Below, piece after piece: positions 52,763 to 63,244 of a stretch of 64,000 nucleotides of DNA. The translations under genes were made by a program, and so were the position numbers. Where the stretch lies: sequence record OP595146.1; one strand, 5' to 3'. Source of the DNA: Escherichia phage vB_EcoM_DE17. Position 1 is the first letter of the stretch, and every line of letters begins with the position of its first letter. A model generated the notes under the pieces. The model searched no databases. It saw nothing but the letters and a program-made list of their open reading frames with translations, and was not told the origin of the DNA.

Positions 52763-52954
52763 ATGAACAAAGAAGATAAACATAAAAATGCTGTACGAAC
52801 TCCTGATGGAAAGGTTCAATCCTTCATCCTTACAGTTGGTGGAAAGCCATTTCGTTGCCACTGCGGAGCAAACTGTTTTCATAAACCAGATAAAAATGAC
52901 TTAGAGCTTTACGCATGTAATGCTTGCAATACTTGGTATCACTCAGAGGAATAA
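52763..52954 (+). CDS. zinc-ribbon small protein (paralog of 52235..52438)
   Basis: 63 aa; CHCGANCFHKPDKNDLELYACNACN. Confidence 0.55.
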   Translation: MNKEDKHKNAVRTPDGKVQSFILTVGGKPFRCHCGANCFHKPDKNDLELYACNACNTWYHSEE

Positions 52955-52955
52955 A

Positions 52956-54059
52956 ATGACAATTCTGTACAAACAAAATAAAGATAACTCTTTTAACGTC
53001 TGGTCATGCGTTGCTGTAGGTGACAAAGTTATTACAACCTACGGTAAAGAAAATGGCAAGATGATGTTTGAAGAGTATACAGCAGAACCTAAAAACATCG
53101 GTAAAAAGAACGAGCGTAACGCTGAACAGCAAGCTCTCTTTGAAGTCGCTGCTAAGTATAAAAAGCAAGTTGACCGCAAAGGTTATGCTTACACAAAAGA
53201 ATCTGCACAGAATACTGAGAAGGTAGGTGTGCAGCTTGCTCATGATGCTGCAAAGGTTAGTCATGCAAAGTATCTGAAGTTCCCTGCTGATGCTCAACCG
53301 AAACTTGATGGTGTCCGTTGTAGGATTTCAAGGCACTTAAGTATTGGCAGTGTATTCACAGCATACTCTCGTGAAAATACTGTTTACAAAATCCCTACTG
53401 AACTAATACCTGATATTATGGCAATGTTAAGGCTCCACAAAGATGTTGATGAATTTGATGGAGAGATTTATGCTCATGGGTGGGACTTAGAAGATATTGT
53501 CTCTATGATTAAAAATGAAGACAATCCTGACCGTCATCTACTTAAGTTTTACTGGTATGATATCTGTGACAGTACTAAGACGTGGCCTGAGCGTAGAGAT
53601 ATTATTGAGACTTCACCATTGAATGACTTTAGAGACGGCTGTAAAGTTGTTCCTGTTAAGTCTCGTCGTGTAAATTCTTGGGAAGAGTTTGATGAAGCTC
53701 ATGATAAGTGGGTTGAAGCTAAGTTTGAAGGTGCAATGTACCGTTCAATCTCTGAAGACTCCTTCTATGAGTGCTGTCACCGTTCATACTTCTTGATTAA
53801 GCACAAGAAGATGCACACTGAAGAGTTTAAAGTGACTGGTGTAAAGACTGATAAGCGTGGTCATGGCAAGTTCGTTGTAGAGACTCTTCCTAACGTCTTT
53901 GTAGATGTCTCATGGAAGACTACTCATGAGAAGAAACAGTATCTTGCTGAGCATCCTGAAGAGTTTATTGGGAAGCCTTTAACGGTTCAGTTCCAGAAGA
54001 TGACTCGTAAGGGTTCTTTACAGTTCCCTGTTGGGCTAGTTATCAGGGATTACGAATAA
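52956..54059 (+). CDS. ATP-dependent DNA ligase
   Basis: Adenylation motif I KLDGVR (QPKLDGVRC); size matches T7-type ligases. Start set to the GAGGA-preceded ATG at 52956. Confidence 0.8.
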   Translation: MTILYKQNKDNSFNVWSCVAVGDKVITTYGKENGKMMFEEYTAEPKNIGKKNERNAEQQALFEVAAKYKKQVDRKGYAYTKESAQNTEKVGVQLAHDAAKVSHAKYLKFPADAQPKLDGVRCRISRHLSIGSVFTAYSRENTVYKIPTELIPDIMAMLRLHKDVDEFDGEIYAHGWDLEDIVSMIKNEDNPDRHLLKFYWYDICDSTKTWPERRDIIETSPLNDFRDGCKVVPVKSRRVNSWEEFDEAHDKWVEAKFEGAMYRSISEDSFYECCHRSYFLIKHKKMHTEEFKVTGVKTDKRGHGKFVVETLPNVFVDVSWKTTHEKKQYLAEHPEEFIGKPLTVQFQKMTRKGSLQFPVGLVIRDYE

Positions 54060-56120: not shown

Positions 56121-56381
56121 ATGAAAATTGAACACTGCTATGAGTCTGACGGAGCACCTATCCGTTGTCCACATTGTGGATGCACAGACTTACAAGGTGA
56201 GGTAAGTGAAATAGTCAACGGTCATATTGCTGAAGAGAGTACAAGGTGTACAGGGTGTAGTGAAGTTATTGCTTTCTGGGCTTATGGTTCATACCAGCCT
56301 ACGCCACACTTAATCTACCATAGCAATAAAGCTGTGAAGAATGTTATCAACTGGTTCATTAAGAAAGGGTTTACAAAATGA
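56121..56381 (+). CDS. small zinc-ribbon protein
   Basis: 86 aa; CPHCGC ... CTGCS. Confidence 0.5.
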   Translation: MKIEHCYESDGAPIRCPHCGCTDLQGEVSEIVNGHIAEESTRCTGCSEVIAFWAYGSYQPTPHLIYHSNKAVKNVINWFIKKGFTK

Positions 56382-56923
56382 TTAAATTAATCTTTGCAAG
56401 TGGTGAAAATGGTGAGTTTGGTACTCCAACTGGTATGCCGTGGCCTCGACATAAACAGGACATGCAAGAGTTTAAGAGACTCACTAAAAACAACTTAGTA
56501 GTGATGGGTAATGAGACTTTCAAGACTCTGGGGAGTAAACCTTTACCAGAACGTGCAAACCTAATCTTAACAAATTCTGTACCATACTTAGGCATAGACT
56601 TTGGCAAAGATGAGGTAATGTATGCTAAGGCCAGCAAAGAATCCTTTGGAGCATTTTTGAACTATCTTGATAGCTCTATTGATGAAGATGTCTTTGTAAT
56701 TGGTGGTGCAGGTGTCCTTGTCAATGCTTTACCATATGCTGGTGTAGTTTTCCATACAGTTTTCCATAAAGTTACTGAAGAGGCCACTGTGTATTTACCT
56801 TTTGAAAACTTTTTTGAGAAGTTGTATGATAACCGTGTATTTACAAAGGTACAGTCAAAACCATCAGAGGATGGTAAAGCAACCTTTGAAATTTATGTTC
56901 CACAAGTAAAAGGGCACTTTTGA
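56378..56923 (+). CDS. frd: dihydrofolate reductase
   Basis: 181 aa; MPW near the N-terminus, VVMGNETFKTLG, PLPERANLIL, as in FolA-type DHFR; upstream of thyA. Confidence 0.8.
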   Translation: MIKLIFASGENGEFGTPTGMPWPRHKQDMQEFKRLTKNNLVVMGNETFKTLGSKPLPERANLILTNSVPYLGIDFGKDEVMYAKASKESFGAFLNYLDSSIDEDVFVIGGAGVLVNALPYAGVVFHTVFHKVTEEATVYLPFENFFEKLYDNRVFTKVQSKPSEDGKATFEIYVPQVKGHF

Positions 56924-56924
56924 T

Positions 56925-57824
56925 ATGTCACAAGCAGATACAAGTTACAAAAATATCCTGAACCATGTTTTATCAGTTGGTGAACTGCGTACTACACGAA
57001 CTGGAGATGTTATCTCTGCTTTTGCTCCACCTCAGTTTCGATTTGATATGCGAACTGGTTTCCCGCTCTTAACATCTAAACAGGTGTTTACACGGCAAGT
57101 TATCGGGGAAGCTTTATGGTTCCTGAATGGTGAGAATAAGCTGGGTGAACTCCGTTACCGCACTTGGGGTGAAAATGATGGGGAACGCTGGACTATCTGG
57201 TCAGATGATTTTAAACGCTGGTTAAGCTCTAATTATTCTTCTGAACAAGATTGGTTAGAGGATGCAGGTGGAAGAATCTATGGGGTGCAGTGGAGAAACT
57301 TTGAAGGTCATAACGGTTGTGTTGTAGACCAGTTAGAGACCTTAGTAACGAAGATGAAGGGTGATATCACAGACCGTTACATGCTTGTTAATGCTTGGAA
57401 TGCAGCAGATATTGCAGCAAACTCAATGGCTTTAGCACCTTGTCATGTTCTGTTTCAGATTTATATCACTAATGAGGGTGAAGTTGACTTACAATGGTAT
57501 CAGCGTTCAGTGGACACCTTCTTAGGACTTCCGTTTAATATTGCATCTTACGGTTTTATTCTGGAAGTTCTTTGTAAGATGACTGGATACACTCCACGGT
57601 ACTTGATAGGTGTCTTTGGAGATACTCAGATTTATCAGAACCATATGAAGCAGGTTTATGAACTGATGAACAATGAAGAGTTCCATGCACCAACTTTTGA
57701 GATTGGTATCCCACTTAACACTTTAAGTGACTTAAAACATCTTACAGCAAGTGATTTTATTGGTGGGATTAATAACTACCAACATGCAGGTAAGATTGAA
57801 GCACCTCTGTCAGTAGGCAAGTAA
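56925..57824 (+). CDS. thyA: thymidylate synthase
   Basis: 299 aa; RTG-FPLLT, ALAPCH active-site Cys, YQRS-D-FLGLPFNIASY, GDTQIYQNH match ThyA throughout. Confidence 0.9.
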   Translation: MSQADTSYKNILNHVLSVGELRTTRTGDVISAFAPPQFRFDMRTGFPLLTSKQVFTRQVIGEALWFLNGENKLGELRYRTWGENDGERWTIWSDDFKRWLSSNYSSEQDWLEDAGGRIYGVQWRNFEGHNGCVVDQLETLVTKMKGDITDRYMLVNAWNAADIAANSMALAPCHVLFQIYITNEGEVDLQWYQRSVDTFLGLPFNIASYGFILEVLCKMTGYTPRYLIGVFGDTQIYQNHMKQVYELMNNEEFHAPTFEIGIPLNTLSDLKHLTASDFIGGINNYQHAGKIEAPLSVGK

Positions 57825-57831
57825 AACAAAA

Positions 57832-57855
57832 AAGGCTCCCGTAAAAAGGAGCCTT
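57832..57855. terminator. bidirectional terminator between thyA and the minus-strand late block
   Basis: GGCTCC-CGTAAAAA-GGAGCC hairpin flanked by A-run and T-run. Confidence 0.55.
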
Positions 57856-57860
57856 AAATT

Positions 57861-58232
57861 TTATTTTTCAGTATTCTTTGTGTTCTTTTCAGTAATAGCT
57901 TGCAAGGCTGATACTGATTGAGCCAGATTGTTCACACTGTCAGAGAATTTATCAAGAGTCTTAGTAAGTTTTGCATTCTCACCCTTAACATTCTCTAACT
58001 GAACTTTCTGGTTCTCCATCCCTAGCTGAATCAGTCTCATGTCAGACTGTAAATCACGAATAGCTGAGTAATTACTTTTGGAATAATTATCTAACTGCTG
58101 TAACTTTGTTGTGACAGAAACTTCTTGTTTACCACTTGAAACTTGCATGGTGGTATACATCCCAATAACACTAAAAATACCAACTACAATTGCACCAATA
58201 TTATTTTTAAAAGCTTCCTCTAGCCACTTCAT
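57861..58232 (-). CDS. hypothetical membrane-anchored coiled-coil protein
   Basis: 123 aa; N-terminal TM (IGAIVVGIFSVIGMYTT). Confidence 0.5.
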   Translation of the reverse strand: MKWLEEAFKNNIGAIVVGIFSVIGMYTTMQVSSGKQEVSVTTKLQQLDNYSKSNYSAIRDLQSDMRLIQLGMENQKVQLENVKGENAKLTKTLDKFSDSVNNLAQSVSALQAITEKNTKNTEK

Positions 58233-58426
58233 TTATTCTCCCCCTTAAAAGCTTTTTCTAAGTTATCTACGAACTCATCATCAATAGGTGTGTCTGTTTT
58301 ACTCGCAAGATATCTTGCAAGCTTAAAGAACACTTTCTCAATCATGTATTCACTTAGAAGGGATAAAATGAGTTTCCAGAAGAAGCTACCTAGATTTTTT
58401 AGAAGAATTGCTAGGATTGTAGGCAT
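58229..58426 (-). CDS. hypothetical small membrane protein
   Basis: 65 aa; hydrophobic N-terminus. Confidence 0.45.
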   Translation of the reverse strand: MPTILAILLKNLGSFFWKLILSLLSEYMIEKVFFKLARYLASKTDTPIDDEFVDNLEKAFKGENK

Positions 58427-58505
58427 TTAATCACCTCATCAGCCAAGATGGTGAGAATACCCATAAAGAATATTAACACCATCTTAACAATCAGTCAACA
58501 AGTGA

Positions 58506-60863
58506 TTAAGCAGTTCTTACCCAAGCCATTAACTTGTAGAACTGGTTTGTAACACTAAATGCTGAACCAGAACCAGTACCACCTGTGTTACCGCTAACTG
58601 TGTGGCTGTGAGCACCAATACCAACAGTGTGGCTGTGGTTACCTGTTGTATTCGTTACACCAGACCAAGTTCTTGACGCATTAAAGTTAGCAGGGATACC
58701 ATAAGTGAAGTTAGAGCCAGTAAAACCCTTAGAAGCAGTTGAGCTACCAAGTGTAAATGCACCACTTGCTGTGTAGAAGCTGCTAGAGTCACTTCTAAAG
58801 TAACCTACTGTACCAGTAATCTCCATAGTACCTCTGTTATGGTTATGGTTACCAGTTGTGCTAGAAGTCTTAGTGCCATAATCAAATGATGAAGTGGTAG
58901 CAGAGAAGCTATGCGTGTGTGAAGGTAAGTTGCCAACAGATAACGTTACAGAGTCTGAACCACCAGTTGTAGCAACATCTGAGCCATTTGCTGCTGCAAT
59001 TCGGATAGTTCTACCAACACCATTGTTCAGGTACGTCCAAGTTAGACCAGGAAGTGCTGTATTAGGGTTAACATTGCTGTTAAACCATGTCACAATACCC
59101 ACTGGGTAGATTTTATTCAGGTCTGTAGAGTCACTTACTGCTTCTGCAATTCTCTGGTCAGTTTCAGCTTTAGTATATGCACCAATTTCTGAAGGGGTTG
59201 GTTTCTGAGCTTCAGTGTAAACCTTAGACCATTCAGCCTCAAAACCAGACCTATCTCTGGCTGTTCTATACCACATCCCACCATTTCTATAATCAAACCT
59301 TAATTGCGCAGTTGGTGTTGATGCTAACATATTAGCGAATAGGTGTAAGACTAAACGGCTTGAACCACCACCCTTGATAGTCTCTACATAAATTCCTGAA
59401 GGTTGGTTCCAAGCCACACCACCATCAGACTCCTCCACCAAAGCTCTGGCTGATGACCATAAGTACTTTGCATCGGTTGCAGATTTAACGTAGTATCTAG
59501 CATCTAAGTTAGAGAAATCCGAAGGTTGAACTTGACCCGTGATTGCTAAAGTTGCATTCATTTCAAATACTGAACCAATGCTAAGCCCTTTACCTGTCTT
59601 GTAGTTAAACACATTTAAGATATCACTGGCATCACCATTACCAATATACCACTTGCTGGTTCCATCAACAGCCTTTCCCCTAATGAATAAGGACGTTGCA
59701 GTTTTTGCTCGTAACGCGAGAGCTTCTCCATCAGAGTTGATAACCTGTTGTGCAGAGAATGTATTAGCAGCATTAGTTCTTGCAATCGTACTTAATGTTG
59801 CTGCCGGAATATATCTAGAGTCAATATTAGCCCAATCTGAAGGTTGGACTTGTCCAGTGATTTGCACAGTCTTATTGATACCAATAGTAGTACCTAGTGA
59901 AATCTGTGAACCTGTAAGGTAGTTATAAATGTTTAGACGTGTCTCGTCAGAATCTGTACCAACATACCATTTATTTGTTCCATCAGACTTCTTACCGAGA
60001 ATGTAAAGTGCTGTACTTGCATCAGTATTCTGTAAAGTAATAGCATTAGCATTCTTCTTAGCAACAAGGTTAGTGAAAGTGTTAGCACCTGTAAAAGTAT
60101 TATTGCCAGCTAACTGTGCAAATCTCTGATTAGCAACTGTCTGAGTAAAGTATCTGGCATCTAAGTTAGAGAAATCTGAAGGTTGAACTTGACCAGTGAT
60201 TCTAAGTGACTTGTTAAATGCTGCTGTTGCATCAAGGGTTAACATTGCACCAGTAGCATGATTGTACAAATAAACATTAGTACTATTTGCATTTCCCTGT
60301 CCAACATACCAAGTTTGCTGGTTATTAGCATCTCTACCTTGAATATATGAAGCACCTGCATTGGTTGCCTTCTTAAGAGTTAACTGCTCACCATCAGTTA
60401 CAATTGCTTGCCTGATACTGAAGTTATTTGTAACAGCAATCCTTGCATATCTTGCATCATTCTCTTCATTAGTTCTCATACCAAGCTCATTAGGGCTTGG
60501 TTTATTCAAAGTATGATAAACAGTTGCCGACCTTGTGGCATCTGCAATAGTGAGTTTAAGCCCATTTGAGTTAATTTTAAAAGTCTTTAAAATATCCCCA
60601 ATAGTAATCTCAGAAGAGCCTGTTGGGTCAAATACTGCCTTACCACCGTAAAGTAACTTGACAATACCTAAATCCCCAACCATAGTACTCCCAGCAATCT
60701 GAACAAACCTTTCTAGTTTGAAGGAAGCTAAGAAGTCTTGATAGGTCATTCTACGGTCTTCGTCACCCAACATTTCAGGTCTTTTCTTAACTCTGATGTG
60801 CAATAGGTCTTCTGAACGAATTGTGTCGATTGAGTTTAATTGACTCAATTTGTAATCTGCCAT
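58506..60863 (-). CDS. tail fibre protein with His-rich C-terminal tip
   Basis: 785 aa; three internal repeats containing ITGQVQPSD(F/W)SN(L/I)D(A/S)RY; C-terminal HNHN / HSHTVGIGAHSHTV boxes like T4-type fibre tips. Confidence 0.8.
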   Translation of the reverse strand: MADYKLSQLNSIDTIRSEDLLHIRVKKRPEMLGDEDRRMTYQDFLASFKLERFVQIAGSTMVGDLGIVKLLYGGKAVFDPTGSSEITIGDILKTFKINSNGLKLTIADATRSATVYHTLNKPSPNELGMRTNEENDARYARIAVTNNFSIRQAIVTDGEQLTLKKATNAGASYIQGRDANNQQTWYVGQGNANSTNVYLYNHATGAMLTLDATAAFNKSLRITGQVQPSDFSNLDARYFTQTVANQRFAQLAGNNTFTGANTFTNLVAKKNANAITLQNTDASTALYILGKKSDGTNKWYVGTDSDETRLNIYNYLTGSQISLGTTIGINKTVQITGQVQPSDWANIDSRYIPAATLSTIARTNAANTFSAQQVINSDGEALALRAKTATSLFIRGKAVDGTSKWYIGNGDASDILNVFNYKTGKGLSIGSVFEMNATLAITGQVQPSDFSNLDARYYVKSATDAKYLWSSARALVEESDGGVAWNQPSGIYVETIKGGGSSRLVLHLFANMLASTPTAQLRFDYRNGGMWYRTARDRSGFEAEWSKVYTEAQKPTPSEIGAYTKAETDQRIAEAVSDSTDLNKIYPVGIVTWFNSNVNPNTALPGLTWTYLNNGVGRTIRIAAANGSDVATTGGSDSVTLSVGNLPSHTHSFSATTSSFDYGTKTSSTTGNHNHNRGTMEITGTVGYFRSDSSSFYTASGAFTLGSSTASKGFTGSNFTYGIPANFNASRTWSGVTNTTGNHSHTVGIGAHSHTVSGNTGGTGSGSAFSVTNQFYKLMAWVRTA

Positions 60864-60874
60864 TATAAATTTTC

Positions 60875-60900
60875 CTCTTAAAAGGGGCTACAAAGCCCCT
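60875..60900 (-). terminator. terminator hairpin between the two tail-fibre genes
   Basis: GGGGCT-TTGT-AGCCCC followed by TTTTAAGAGG on the minus strand. Confidence 0.45.
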
Positions 60901-60909
60901 GTAAAGAAA

Positions 60910-62085
60910 TTAAGCTGTTCTCTGCCACACATATACTACAAAAGATGGCTGCTCAACACTGAAAGCTTGACCACCACCAACAGAACCAGATGTCCCTGAG
61001 TGTGTATGCTCAGAGCTAGAAACAGTAACAGTGCCCGTATGACTGTGTGAACCAATATTGACAGTGTGGCTGTGAGCACCAATTGCAACAGTATGACTAT
61101 GAGCACCAGATGATGCAGTTGTACCTGAGAAGCTATGGGTGTGAGCACCAGCTAAGTCAGTATATGAAGCATTACCAACCCCAGCATCAGCAGATGCGGT
61201 AATAGCATTTGACCCACTTCTATCATTACCCCTCAGAGGTACTCTATGGTTGTGGTTACCAGCATTACTTGTCGTTCCACTAAATGTGTGGGTGTGAGCA
61301 CCAGCACTGTTAGTTGCCTTCGTACCGTAGTCAAAAGTTGATGTACTCTTTGAACCATAATCAAAACTAGAGATAGATACACTTGCAGAGTGTGTATGAC
61401 CACCCCCTGTTAGATAGATAGAGTGAGTATGTGCTGGTAAATTGTTATTTGTCAATACTACAGTCTGAGAACCAAAAGTTGAACCAACAGGTCTAGAATC
61501 TGTATCATAACCAACCAGTGCTCTACCTTTAGAAACTAACTCCCAAGTACCTCCACAAAGCAAGTAAGTGGATGGGTTGGCAGAGTTAACAGATAGGTGA
61601 ATAGTCCCTACTGGATATGATGCTTGAATAGCTTTGTATAAATTATTCACTGCTCTCGCGGTAGCGTACTTATCAGCATCTTCATTGTACAGATTAGATG
61701 TTGTCCAGTTCTGAACATTACTTAAACCTACCTGTGCTTTCGTTGTATTGTGTGGGTTACTTTTGTCGTCAATATGTTGCTGAATTGAGTTATTCACTTC
61801 TTCTGACGACATAATTTGTAGATTTGCTCTTGCCTCAGCAACATTCACAATGTCTGACAAGTTATTGGCTGCAACTAATTGGAGAGAGTTAATAACATTA
61901 TCAAGACCCACTTGTGATTTAGTTACACCATGAGGATTATTCCTCAGAGATGCGTGAGGTGCTAACAACTGTTCAAGCGTACATCTTTTATCCTCAACAC
62001 CTTGCTTAAGGTGGAAGATATCACTTAAATCAACTGGTAAGGCCGCTTGTGGCAAGGCACTAATTTGAATTTCACCTACTGCCAT
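60910..62085 (-). CDS. tail fibre protein (paralogous His-rich tip)
   Basis: 391 aa; N-terminal NPH..TK.QVGL.NV repeats typical of phage fibres; C-terminal HTHS/HSHTV boxes and ending similar to the 785-aa fibre. Confidence 0.8.
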   Translation of the reverse strand: MAVGEIQISALPQAALPVDLSDIFHLKQGVEDKRCTLEQLLAPHASLRNNPHGVTKSQVGLDNVINSLQLVAANNLSDIVNVAEARANLQIMSSEEVNNSIQQHIDDKSNPHNTTKAQVGLSNVQNWTTSNLYNEDADKYATARAVNNLYKAIQASYPVGTIHLSVNSANPSTYLLCGGTWELVSKGRALVGYDTDSRPVGSTFGSQTVVLTNNNLPAHTHSIYLTGGGHTHSASVSISSFDYGSKSTSTFDYGTKATNSAGAHTHTFSGTTSNAGNHNHRVPLRGNDRSGSNAITASADAGVGNASYTDLAGAHTHSFSGTTASSGAHSHTVAIGAHSHTVNIGSHSHTGTVTVSSSEHTHSGTSGSVGGGQAFSVEQPSFVVYVWQRTA

Positions 62086-62087
62086 TA

Positions 62088-62390
62088 TTAAGCTCCTACA
62101 TATTCATATGTGTAAAGGTTTCCTGTACTTGTTGATGCAGTCCCTGTCTCAGATTTAATCAGATTCCAGCCATTAGCCACTAAATCTGGTTGCTCAGTTG
62201 CATATGAGCGAACTTCACCAACAGTGCCGTTTACTTTATTAAGCAGGTAGTTGATAATATAGTTGAACCACTGCCTACCCATAGGTTCACCCTTTAAAAG
62301 ACCTGTCTCTTGAACTTCCGGTGGTGGTAAAACTTTTAACTGGTTACCATCAGTATCTACTTCATTTGTAGACCAATTTAAAACTGCCAT
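62088..62390 (-). CDS. hypothetical protein (fibre-associated by position)
   Basis: 100-aa ORF coupled to the fibre gene. Confidence 0.5.
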
Positions 62391-63244
62391 TAAGAATTTC
62401 CTTCTTGTTGTGATTTATCTTTTCTGCCTTTGACAATTTGTGCAACCTCAGCCATGATTCCATATGCACCACCTGCAATAGCTTCTTTACCAACGATGAA
62501 ATAGCCACTATTATTGGACCTATCTACAGTCATATAATCATCACTCTGTGAGTTTGCTGTTCTGTCAACCCTAAAGTAACCATCAATAACACCAGCATCT
62601 GCAAGACTACCTACTAAGTTGGATTCCAGAGAGCCACCAGTGTTATTTGTGACAAGACCTCTGTTAGCATCAGTTACAAACCAGTTCTCTTTATCATCAA
62701 CAATAGCAAGTGATGAATCAGCAACCTCTACAGGAGTCCAAGCAGTTCCATTTAAAGTAACATCTCTTAAGATGACAGCGGAGCCAGTAGTTGTTGCAGA
62801 AATCTTTGACAATGTATATGCAGCATCTAGAACGCTTTTTCTAGTGTTGATACGGATAACGATACCACCAGTCTTAGGAGTAATATGCTCAAAAATCTGA
62901 GAGAAAGTTGCACCATATAGCGTCATAATTGCTTTTTGCAAGAATGTTGGGGTGGTGTCAGAGCGTCTTAGGAAGATTTGGATATAAAGCATAGCCCTAT
63001 ATGTTTCATCATCTGCACCTAAAGGTCTAGGAACTTTAATCAGTGAGCCAATGTTATCAAGTTGTTGGCCTACTGACGTCCTGATATTTCTCTCTGTGTG
63101 CATCTGCCAGCAAACATCCTCTAGAGTTTGTAATTCATCAGTGATTGCTTTCAAGATACTTGTATAGATAAATTTATCTTTAAACTGTGTTACAGTCCTT
63201 TCATCAAGTGTTTTGTAATAAACACTATCAATCTTTTCAAACAT
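62390..63244 (-). CDS. hypothetical protein, probable virion/tail component by position
   Basis: 284-aa ORF. Confidence 0.5.

Follow-up and report, generated by a model that had tools for sequence, protein, structure and literature searches.

A 64,000-nucleotide (nt) stretch of Escherichia phage vB_EcoM_DE17 (OP595146.1; referred to below as the window) carries two adjacent minus-strand genes for proteins of 391 and 785 amino acids (aa), both of which are intact open reading frames (ORFs; coordinates in Table 1). We are highly confident that these genes encode the short tail fiber (STF) and the long tail fiber (LTF) of a Felixounavirus (Felix O1-like) Escherichia coli myophage, with tips of the phage T4 gp37 type and with exchangeable cassettes. 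A reading made from the letters of the window, referred to here as the sequence-only reading, had taken both proteins for tail fibers, and the assignment of each to a PHROG tail fiber family bears this out. A megablast search with the 4-kb region returned 230 phage records, essentially all of them Felix O1-like phages of Escherichia, Salmonella, and Shigella. The LTF sequence is already on deposit for vB_EcoM_DE17 as a "putative tail fiber protein" (P0001; 100% identity), and relatives of the STF ranged from 96 to 40% identity. A literature search on vB_EcoM_DE17 itself found nothing.

Counterparts of the two proteins have been described in three phages. The STF corresponds to gp74 of VpaE1, gp52 of Sf14, and gp26 of Bas63, and the LTF corresponds to gp75, gp53, and gp27 of the same phages. 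For VpaE1 (2015), homology to the T4 gp37 adhesin was reported for the C termini of gp74 (aa 146 to 362) and gp75 (aa 584 to 780), along with high variability in the middle of gp75 (PMC4690856). Cryo-electron microscopy (cryo-EM) of the Shigella phage Sf14 (Commun Biol 2025) revealed two fibers, gp52 (391 aa) and gp53 (792 aa), each in a retracted position alongside the tail (PMC11821841). Cryo-EM of Bas63 (Escherichia phage JohannRWettstein, Sci Adv 2025) defined STF gp26 and LTF gp27, each with a gp37-like collar, an HxH needle, and a head (PMC12609058). The fiber pair, the HxH tips common to its two members, the beta repeats of the LTF, and the variability of these repeats are therefore already published, and the window reveals no new kind of system. 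The cassette map and the evidence for reassortment reported here constitute an incremental addition to that architecture.

A gp37-type tip on both fibers

LTF residues 586 to 785 and STF residues 157 to 391 aligned at 31 to 32% identity, with an E value of 3e-27 when no composition correction was used. With composition adjustment and SEG masking the E value was 1e-8, and hhalign gave 2e-32. Four HxH motifs were counted in the LTF and nine in the STF, compared to 0.27 and 1.4 expected from shuffling of the tips, and none of 20,000 shuffles reached the observed numbers. The similar His-rich tips proposed in the sequence-only reading are thus confirmed, and the alignment identifies the C termini as homologous. 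Toward T4, the STF matched the gp37 tip (2XGF) over aa 146 to 362, collar included, with an E value of 2e-27. The LTF matched the same structure with E values of 6e-4 (single sequence) and 9e-14 (family profile).

It is exceedingly improbable that the similarity of the tips is an artifact of G/S/T/H-rich composition or that one of the genes is a redundant or nonexpressed duplicate. The composition of the tips is biased, and correction for it does weaken the BLAST E value from 3e-27 to 1e-8; however, the match stays significant after correction and in the profile-profile comparison, and the alignment spans the nonrepetitive collar. Both genes are intact, carry a Shine-Dalgarno sequence 8 to 9 nt before the ATG, and are syntenic in relatives. 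Moreover, both fibers are present on the virions of Bas63 (PMC12609058) and Sf14 (PMC11821841) and were detected by mass spectrometry on that of VpaE1 (PMC4690856), which contradicts the idea of a nonexpressed remnant.

The N-terminal parts of STF and LTF showed no detectable relationship (hhalign probability, 2 to 9%), in agreement with the Bas63 paper. As judged from these comparisons, the fibers share a C-terminal collar-and-needle tip and do not represent a whole-gene duplication. The notion of duplicated and diverged tips holds insofar as homology connects the tips with one another and with T4 gp37. It does not extend to the genes, which are not simple duplicates, because only the tip is common to both and because the Bas63 fibers attach at different sites of the baseplate (PMC12609058).

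In each protein, the stretch that varies most across relatives is the head, which lies between the descending and ascending HxH strands. STF heads were only 6 to 28% identical across relatives whose N termini were about 90% identical, and conservation among 71 STF relatives reached its low point (14%) at aa 281 to 300, that is, in the head. Most short fibers (57 of 72) have nine HxH motifs, and the head gap between them measures 37 aa in the STF of the window. An AlphaFold2 (AF2) monomer model of the STF placed long antiparallel strands at aa 222 to 241 and 347 to 365, with a low-confidence stretch at aa 287 to 305. Long fibers fall into different HxH types. Among 112 LTF proteins, 74 have four HxH motifs and a 70-residue gap, as in the window, and 36 have six HxH motifs and a gap of 34 to 48 residues. 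The six-HxH allele is the type of Bas63 and of the T4-like VpaE1 allele. Needle length and head size therefore differ by allele, and by analogy with T4 the needle of the window LTF would be short, with room for four metal sites, and its His-free head would be comparatively large.

The two fiber genes also have His-box DNA in common (coding for GAHSHTV and similar motifs). Positions 58572 to 58648 resemble positions 61034 to 61150 and 61258 to 61303, with 73 to 84% identity over 37 to 52 nt, including an exact run of 20 nt as read by eye from the aligned copies. These segments are a potential source of microhomology for exchange between the two tips.

Repeat modules and cassette exchange in the long fiber

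The 785-aa protein contains three consecutive modules (R1, R2, and R3) of 106 to 113 aa, in line with the three copies of about 110 aa noted in the sequence-only reading. They were 35 to 46% identical in pairs, with BLASTP E values of 9e-22 to 2e-27 and hhalign profile-profile E values of 1e-37 to 5e-47. The repeats were demonstrated by segment-wise BLAST, MAFFT, and hhalign; self-BLAST of the whole protein gave the identity match only. At the DNA level, the repeat period was 339 and 318 nt, and the 53 nt of linker-coding DNA that close R1 were 94% identical to those that close R3. Copies of the linker motif ITGQVQPSD are found at aa 222, 335, and 441. Pfam family PF20744 (gp37_trimer) matched the LTF in three stretches (E value of 1e-54; 182.6 bits against a cutoff of 21.7).

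Downstream of R3 lies a beta domain similar to that of the phage Mu tail fiber protein S. It was recognized by PF12604 (53.5 bits against a cutoff of 22.5), and the LTF matched the Mu S structure 8JU3 with E values of 1e-22 (single sequence), 5e-27 (family profile), and 9e-9 (Foldseek). The pyramid domain of T7 gp17 was matched more weakly (3e-3 for the single sequence and 1e-4 for the profile). A Foldseek search with the low-confidence LTF monomer model returned the Mu fiber, the T4 gp34 rod (4UXG/5NXH), and T7 gp17, each with a probability of 1.0. The match to 4UXG had an E value of 4e-7, yet TM-scores were 0.13 to 0.23 on a model with a mean predicted local distance difference test (pLDDT) score of 52. 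The module cores of this model reached pLDDT values of 70 to 88. When LTF aa 55 to 130 and the Mu-S-like domain were compared to the repeats as possible degenerate copies, hhalign gave no signal (probability below 15%), nor did it find sequence similarity between the N-terminal region and the repeats. Therefore, the five beta-helix domains described for Bas63 would correspond to three sequence repeats and two unrelated beta blocks.

The cassette statistics are drawn from the 120 best database hits, clustered at 90% identity; the LTF was aligned with 111 relatives (112 proteins) and the STF with 71. Some parts of the LTF were conserved, with a mean identity to the query of 87 to 100%: aa 1 to 140, the linkers at aa 221 to 260, 341 to 360, and 441 to 460, the collar at aa 581 to 660, and the last 45 residues. 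Between them lie five variable blocks with a mean identity of 52 to 80%, namely, the cores of R1 (aa 141 to 220), R2 (aa 261 to 340), and R3 (aa 361 to 440), the Mu-S-like domain (aa 461 to 575), and the head (aa 661 to 740). Identities per segment were bimodal; the R1 core, for example, was either about 99% or about 38% identical. Clustering at 80% yielded 9 to 14 alleles per cassette and 77 allele combinations in the 112 proteins, all of which have three modules with a core length of 79 to 83 aa. No allele was common to different repeat positions in this set, and similarity across positions never exceeded about 53%. An origin of the divergent alleles as copies from another repeat position was rejected for this reason.

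Three relatives (L001 to L003) illustrate how the cassettes differ. In L001, the DNA for LTF residues 141 to 220 (240 nt) was replaced by a block with 50% nucleotide identity, while the remaining 8.4 kb was 97.4% identical to the window. L002 differed at residues 381 to 580 (72% nucleotide identity), and L003 had a replaced head (residues 661 to 760; 58% nucleotide identity). These single-cassette replacements sit inside regions that are otherwise 97 to 98% identical. Such a pattern is impossible by point mutation in situ; therefore, it indicates recombinational exchange of cassettes with junctions in the conserved linkers. On this sequence evidence, LTF variability comes from recombination rather than drift, with the recombination deduced from the breakpoints. 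A more extreme replacement was found in LTF variants of 848 aa (P0033 from phage KEP1, P0079, and P0080). In these, the Mu-S-like domain (aa 458 to 580) has given way to an unrelated one of about 175 aa (SASDSRYLRIRSTSFNVGN...), while the flanking linkers are unchanged and the head allele is the same as that of the window.

The individual alleles of the window recur in sequenced phages in different sets (R1 in 26 records, R2 in 38, R3 in 7, the Mu-S-like domain in 30, and the head in 21). Its shaft alleles (R1, R2, R3, and Mu-S) were found in Escherichia and Salmonella phages, whereas the LTF head allele was confined to phages of Escherichia, most of which had been isolated with O157:H7 or another Shiga toxin-producing E. 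coli as the host; these allele-by-host counts are small and not phylogenetically independent. The distribution fits a role of the head as the host-specific element and offers no support for a genus-level specificity of the shaft cassettes. Together with the position of the most variable stretch at the head, it also fits the earlier suggestion that diverged tips are a route to host range variation.

Two known diversification systems were considered and rejected. A switching fiber of the Mu type did not agree with the data, as no inverted repeats of at least 18 nt were present in positions 57800 to 62400, the downstream ORFs had no Tfa/U matches, and only one domain is shared with Mu. A target of a diversity-generating retroelement was rejected because the only DNA to form long direct repeats was that of the 53-nt conserved linkers and of the His boxes, and none of these repeats covers a variable core; no search for a reverse transcriptase was made in the rest of the window.

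Possible roles of the variable shaft

We propose the following model for the two fibers. The genes are transcribed as part of the late baseplate operon, in the order wedge, LTF platform, STF, and LTF, and each fiber protein would form a homotrimer, as do its counterparts in Bas63, Sf14, and T4. By analogy with the relatives, the N termini would dock on the baseplate, the STF on wedge 2 and the LTF on a trimer of the 100-aa platform protein. The C termini would form gp37-type tips, in which a collar like that of gp10 leads into a six-stranded beta needle with the head at its distal end, and HxH motifs from three chains may coordinate one metal ion per motif within the needle (Fe2+ in T4). The head is expected to contact the receptor, which according to the literature on the genus is the lipopolysaccharide (LPS) core and/or O antigen. 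Going by the relatives, the LTF probably makes a first, reversible contact, and the STF would act after rearrangement of the baseplate. The LTF shaft consists of the three homologous beta modules and the Mu-S-like beta domain, with conserved helical linkers between them. Throughout the genus, the five LTF cassettes and the STF head occur as discrete alleles that are swapped by homologous recombination in near-invariant linkers, leading to combinatorial fiber variants.

Several observations weigh against this assignment and its reach. The Gp10_C family scored 24.3 bits on LTF aa 583 to 681, which is below the Pfam cutoff of 27. The AF2 monomer model of the LTF was poor (mean pLDDT, 52), with confident beta blocks only at about aa 150 to 220, 280 to 335, 390 to 445, and 470 to 560. 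The STF model (pLDDT, 67) had no Foldseek match in the PDB at an E value of 0.001 or lower and only weak matches to gp10; this search was uninformative because a monomer model was used for an intertwined trimer. The cassette statistics are biased toward the query and are not phylogenetically independent. Finally, the literature names LPS as the receptor of Felixounavirus but assigns no separate binding roles to the two fibers (PMC8594841; PMC12609058). A receptor prediction preprint from 2026 assigned no receptor to Felixounavirus, and the PhageMaP preprint on essentiality in Bas63 is silent on these fibers.

The authors of the Bas63 study called the variability of beta domains 2 to 5 "unexpected" and named mutation tolerance, variable host recognition, and a defense target as options (PMC12609058). 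Neutral drift in mutation-tolerant spacer domains is an unlikely explanation of the shaft cores. Module length and number are conserved, as would be expected for a structural ruler; however, identities are bimodal rather than graded, alleles reassort independently, and a 240-nt block with 50% identity amid 8 kb at 97.4% in L001 contradicts drift as the sole mechanism. A neutral exchange of preexisting cassette alleles is possible. Alternatively, the repeat cores and the Mu-S-like domain could provide additional binding sites for LPS or O-antigen sugars and thereby a multivalent, combinatorial recognition beyond the tip. In favor of this, the shaft cassettes vary to the same degree as the head, unlike the invariant linkers, and their discrete alleles are maintained and reassorted. 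In addition, the Mu-S-like slot can hold a nonhomologous domain, and the relative of the Mu-S-like domain in the Mu fiber is a receptor-binding part. This explanation, which is also one of the three raised for Bas63 (PMC12609058), nevertheless appears doubtful, as the alleles of R1, R2, R3, and the Mu-S-like domain are common to Escherichia and Salmonella phages, in contrast to the Escherichia-only head allele. Shaft alleles therefore do not track the host genus.

We consider it quite unlikely that the shaft cassettes vary as targets of a host antiphage defense or antagonist, with allele exchange as a means of escape. Discrete and strongly diverged alleles at exposed beta domains on conserved scaffolds would suit such a role, and it was put forward as a possibility for Bas63 (PMC12609058); however, nothing in the window bears on defense sensing of shaft domains. 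To our knowledge, no defense system senses LTF shaft domains. Tentatively, the LTF may be viewed as a series of five surface cassettes that are exchanged independently and work in combination, and in which at least some shaft cassettes have a ligand of their own, be it for lateral glycan binding or for defense evasion. If this proved true, the combination of alleles over the full length of the fiber would determine host range or immunity escape in Felixounavirus, which would explain why beta domains 2 to 5 of Bas63 are so variable, a question left by its authors.

The evidence for recombination instead of drift narrows the three hypotheses of the Bas63 study. Felix O1-like phages are widely used for typing and biocontrol of Salmonella and E. 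coli, and their fibers decide which strains are killed. The practical value of the analysis lies in the cassette map, which gives exact boundaries for the five LTF segments and the STF head, with the invariant linkers as natural junctions for host range engineering.

Genomic context and comparison with known systems

The fiber genes are the last two of a conserved series. Genes for proteins of 489, 284, 100, 391, and 785 aa follow one another in L001 to L003 (synteny check), and the order 284, 100, 391, and 785 aa is found on the minus strand of the window. The features of the locus are compiled in Table 1. The hairpin between the fiber genes may control the STF:LTF ratio as a weak terminator or attenuator, or it may stabilize the mRNA. 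A role of STF aa 1 to 145 in baseplate binding is suggested by the Bas63 cryo-EM structure (PMC12609058).

Table 1. Positions of the fiber genes, their domains, and adjacent features in the window
Feature	Position (nt)	Strand	Evidence and remarks
Baseplate wedge protein, 284 aa	62390..63244	-	phrog_4017 baseplate protein, E 5e-168; synteny; counterpart Bas63 wedge 1 (gp24, 285 aa)
100-aa protein 5' of STF gene	62088..62390	-	phrog_4141; counterpart Bas63 gp25 LTF platform, by position only (PMC12609058)
STF gene	60910..62085	-	391 aa; phrog_2097 tail fiber, E 3e-137; Pfam Gp10_C aa 154-276, E 1e-18; 2XGF, E 2e-27
STF putative N-terminal baseplate-binding region and short shaft, aa 1-145	61651..62085	-	repeated motif NPHxxTKxQVGLxNV; 74-98% conserved in close relatives
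STF collar, T4 gp10/gp37 type, aa 146-215	61441..61650	-	Pfam PF21939; PDB 2FKK/5HX2 gp10, E 3e-6 (single sequence), 1e-10 (family profile)
STF needle and head, aa 216-391	60913..61440	-	9 HxH; hypervariable head ~aa 281-312 (nt 61150-61245)
GC-rich 7-bp hairpin and UUUU	60880..60900	-	between STF stop and LTF ribosome-binding site; dG -16.5 kcal/mol, z -2.3; conserved in L001-L003
LTF gene	58506..60863	-	785 aa; phrog_4277, E 0
LTF N-terminal region, aa 1-140	60444..60863	-	putative baseplate-binding domain and first beta block; 91-100% identity to query, 111 relatives
LTF module R1, aa 126-238 (113 aa)	60150..60488	-	variable core aa 141-220; ends in conserved linker ITGQVQPSDFSNLDARY; PF20744 gp37_trimer
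LTF module R2, aa 239-351 (113 aa)	59811..60149	-	variable core aa 261-340; Pfam, repeat alignment, hhalign
LTF module R3, aa 352-457 (106 aa)	59493..59810	-	variable core aa 361-440; Pfam, repeat alignment, hhalign
LTF Mu-S-like beta domain, aa 458-580 (Pfam gp37_C)	59124..59492	-	PF12604, E 3e-14, match aa 480-580; fourth variable cassette
LTF collar, aa 581-660	58884..59123	-	98-100% identity, nearly invariant; tip homologous to STF tip
LTF short needle and head, aa 661-785	58509..58883	-	HxH at aa 649, 673, 743, 752; His-free head ~67 aa (aa 676-742, nt 58638-58838); then invariant C-terminal strand

Further elements were observed 3' of the LTF stop codon. A sigma70-like promoter sequence (TTGACT-17-TAATAT) and a 9-bp inverted repeat (AAGATGGTG...CACCATCTT) are located on the minus strand in the region 58229 to 58505, just upstream of a 65-aa ORF (58229..58426, minus strand). 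This ORF has a single transmembrane helix and belongs to phrog_402 (function unknown); in relatives, the ORF carries the precomputed Pfam assignment PF26925 (Phage_PM2_Gpl). It is followed by a 123-aa ORF (57861 to 58232, minus strand) with an N-terminal transmembrane helix and a coiled coil (phrog_4038, function unknown), which had weak Pfam matches of a DivIC- or filament-like kind. This gene closes the late operon, behind those for the fibers, and could encode a lysis or assembly factor. A bidirectional intrinsic terminator at 57832 to 57855 (9-bp stem, T-runs on both strands) divides the minus-strand fiber operon from a convergent plus-strand operon for thymidylate synthase and dihydrofolate reductase (DHFR). 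The ORFs that look like DHFR and thymidylate synthase lie at 56378 to 57824 (plus strand; PF00186/PF00303 in syntenic relatives), and an ORF resembling an ATP-dependent DNA ligase, judged by eye from its translation, lies at 52920 to 54059 (plus strand). Ligase-like and DHFR/thymidylate synthase ORFs convergent to the fiber operon are the typical layout of Felix O1-like phages.

Bas63 is one of the closest known systems. It belongs to the same genus, has the same gene order, and its LTF is 65% identical over the full length (tblastn, 100% coverage). Both phages have a gp37-like collar, needle, and head with HxH motifs in both fibers, as well as LTF beta repeats with helical linkers, and the Bas63 authors remarked on the variability of the tips as well as of these beta domains. 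They differ in their cassette alleles: the LTF of the window has four HxH motifs and a His-free head of 67 aa, compared to six motifs in Bas63, and the STF has nine motifs, compared to seven. The Bas63 LTF was described as having five beta-helix repeat domains with helical turns between them, like the T4 gp34 rod, and as being attached via the gp9-like platform gp25 (PMC12609058), whereas three domains of the window LTF are homologous in sequence. Sf14 is of the same subfamily and has the same two-fiber arrangement with near-identical lengths (LTF 55% identical; tblastn, 100% coverage), but it represents the genus Mooglevirus, and its alleles are more divergent, especially at the distal tip. 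A Mu-type chaperone was not found in Sf14 (PMC11821841).

The likeness to the T4 gp37 tip (2XGF) comprises the collar, the HxH needle, the head, and the returning strand. T4 has seven HxH motifs, compared to nine in the STF and four in the LTF of the window, whose head is larger and His free. In the window, moreover, the tip is fused onto single-protein fibers, whereas the fiber of T4 is built from four proteins, of which gp37 forms the distal segment and needs gp38 and gp57A. Neither the 65-aa nor the 123-aa ORF downstream matched a chaperone family; a search for gp57A-like genes was not extended to the rest of the window. The HxH motifs of the T4 gp37 tip bind iron (Bartual 2010 as cited in PMC12609058). 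The three LTF modules match PF20744 and the T7 gp17 pyramid (4A0T) in sequence, and the Foldseek search, made with a low-confidence monomer model, suggests a possible likeness to the T4 gp34 rod (4UXG/5NXH); the sequence identity is only about 15%. With the S/S' fiber of Mu (8JU3, PF12604), the LTF has in common residues 472 to 573, which are homologous to Mu S residues 329 to 427; the domain is internal in the LTF of the window and not terminal.

A final parallel concerns the mode of variation. Domain shuffling mediated by His boxes was reportedly described by Tetart et al. in 1996 (listed in PMC6669636) and 1998 for the gp37/gp38 adhesins of T-even phages. In both cases, variable segments lie between short conserved motifs at which recombination takes place, as judged for the LTF from the breakpoints; however, the main exchange points of the LTF shaft are the helical linkers (ITGQVQPSD...ARY) and not His boxes.

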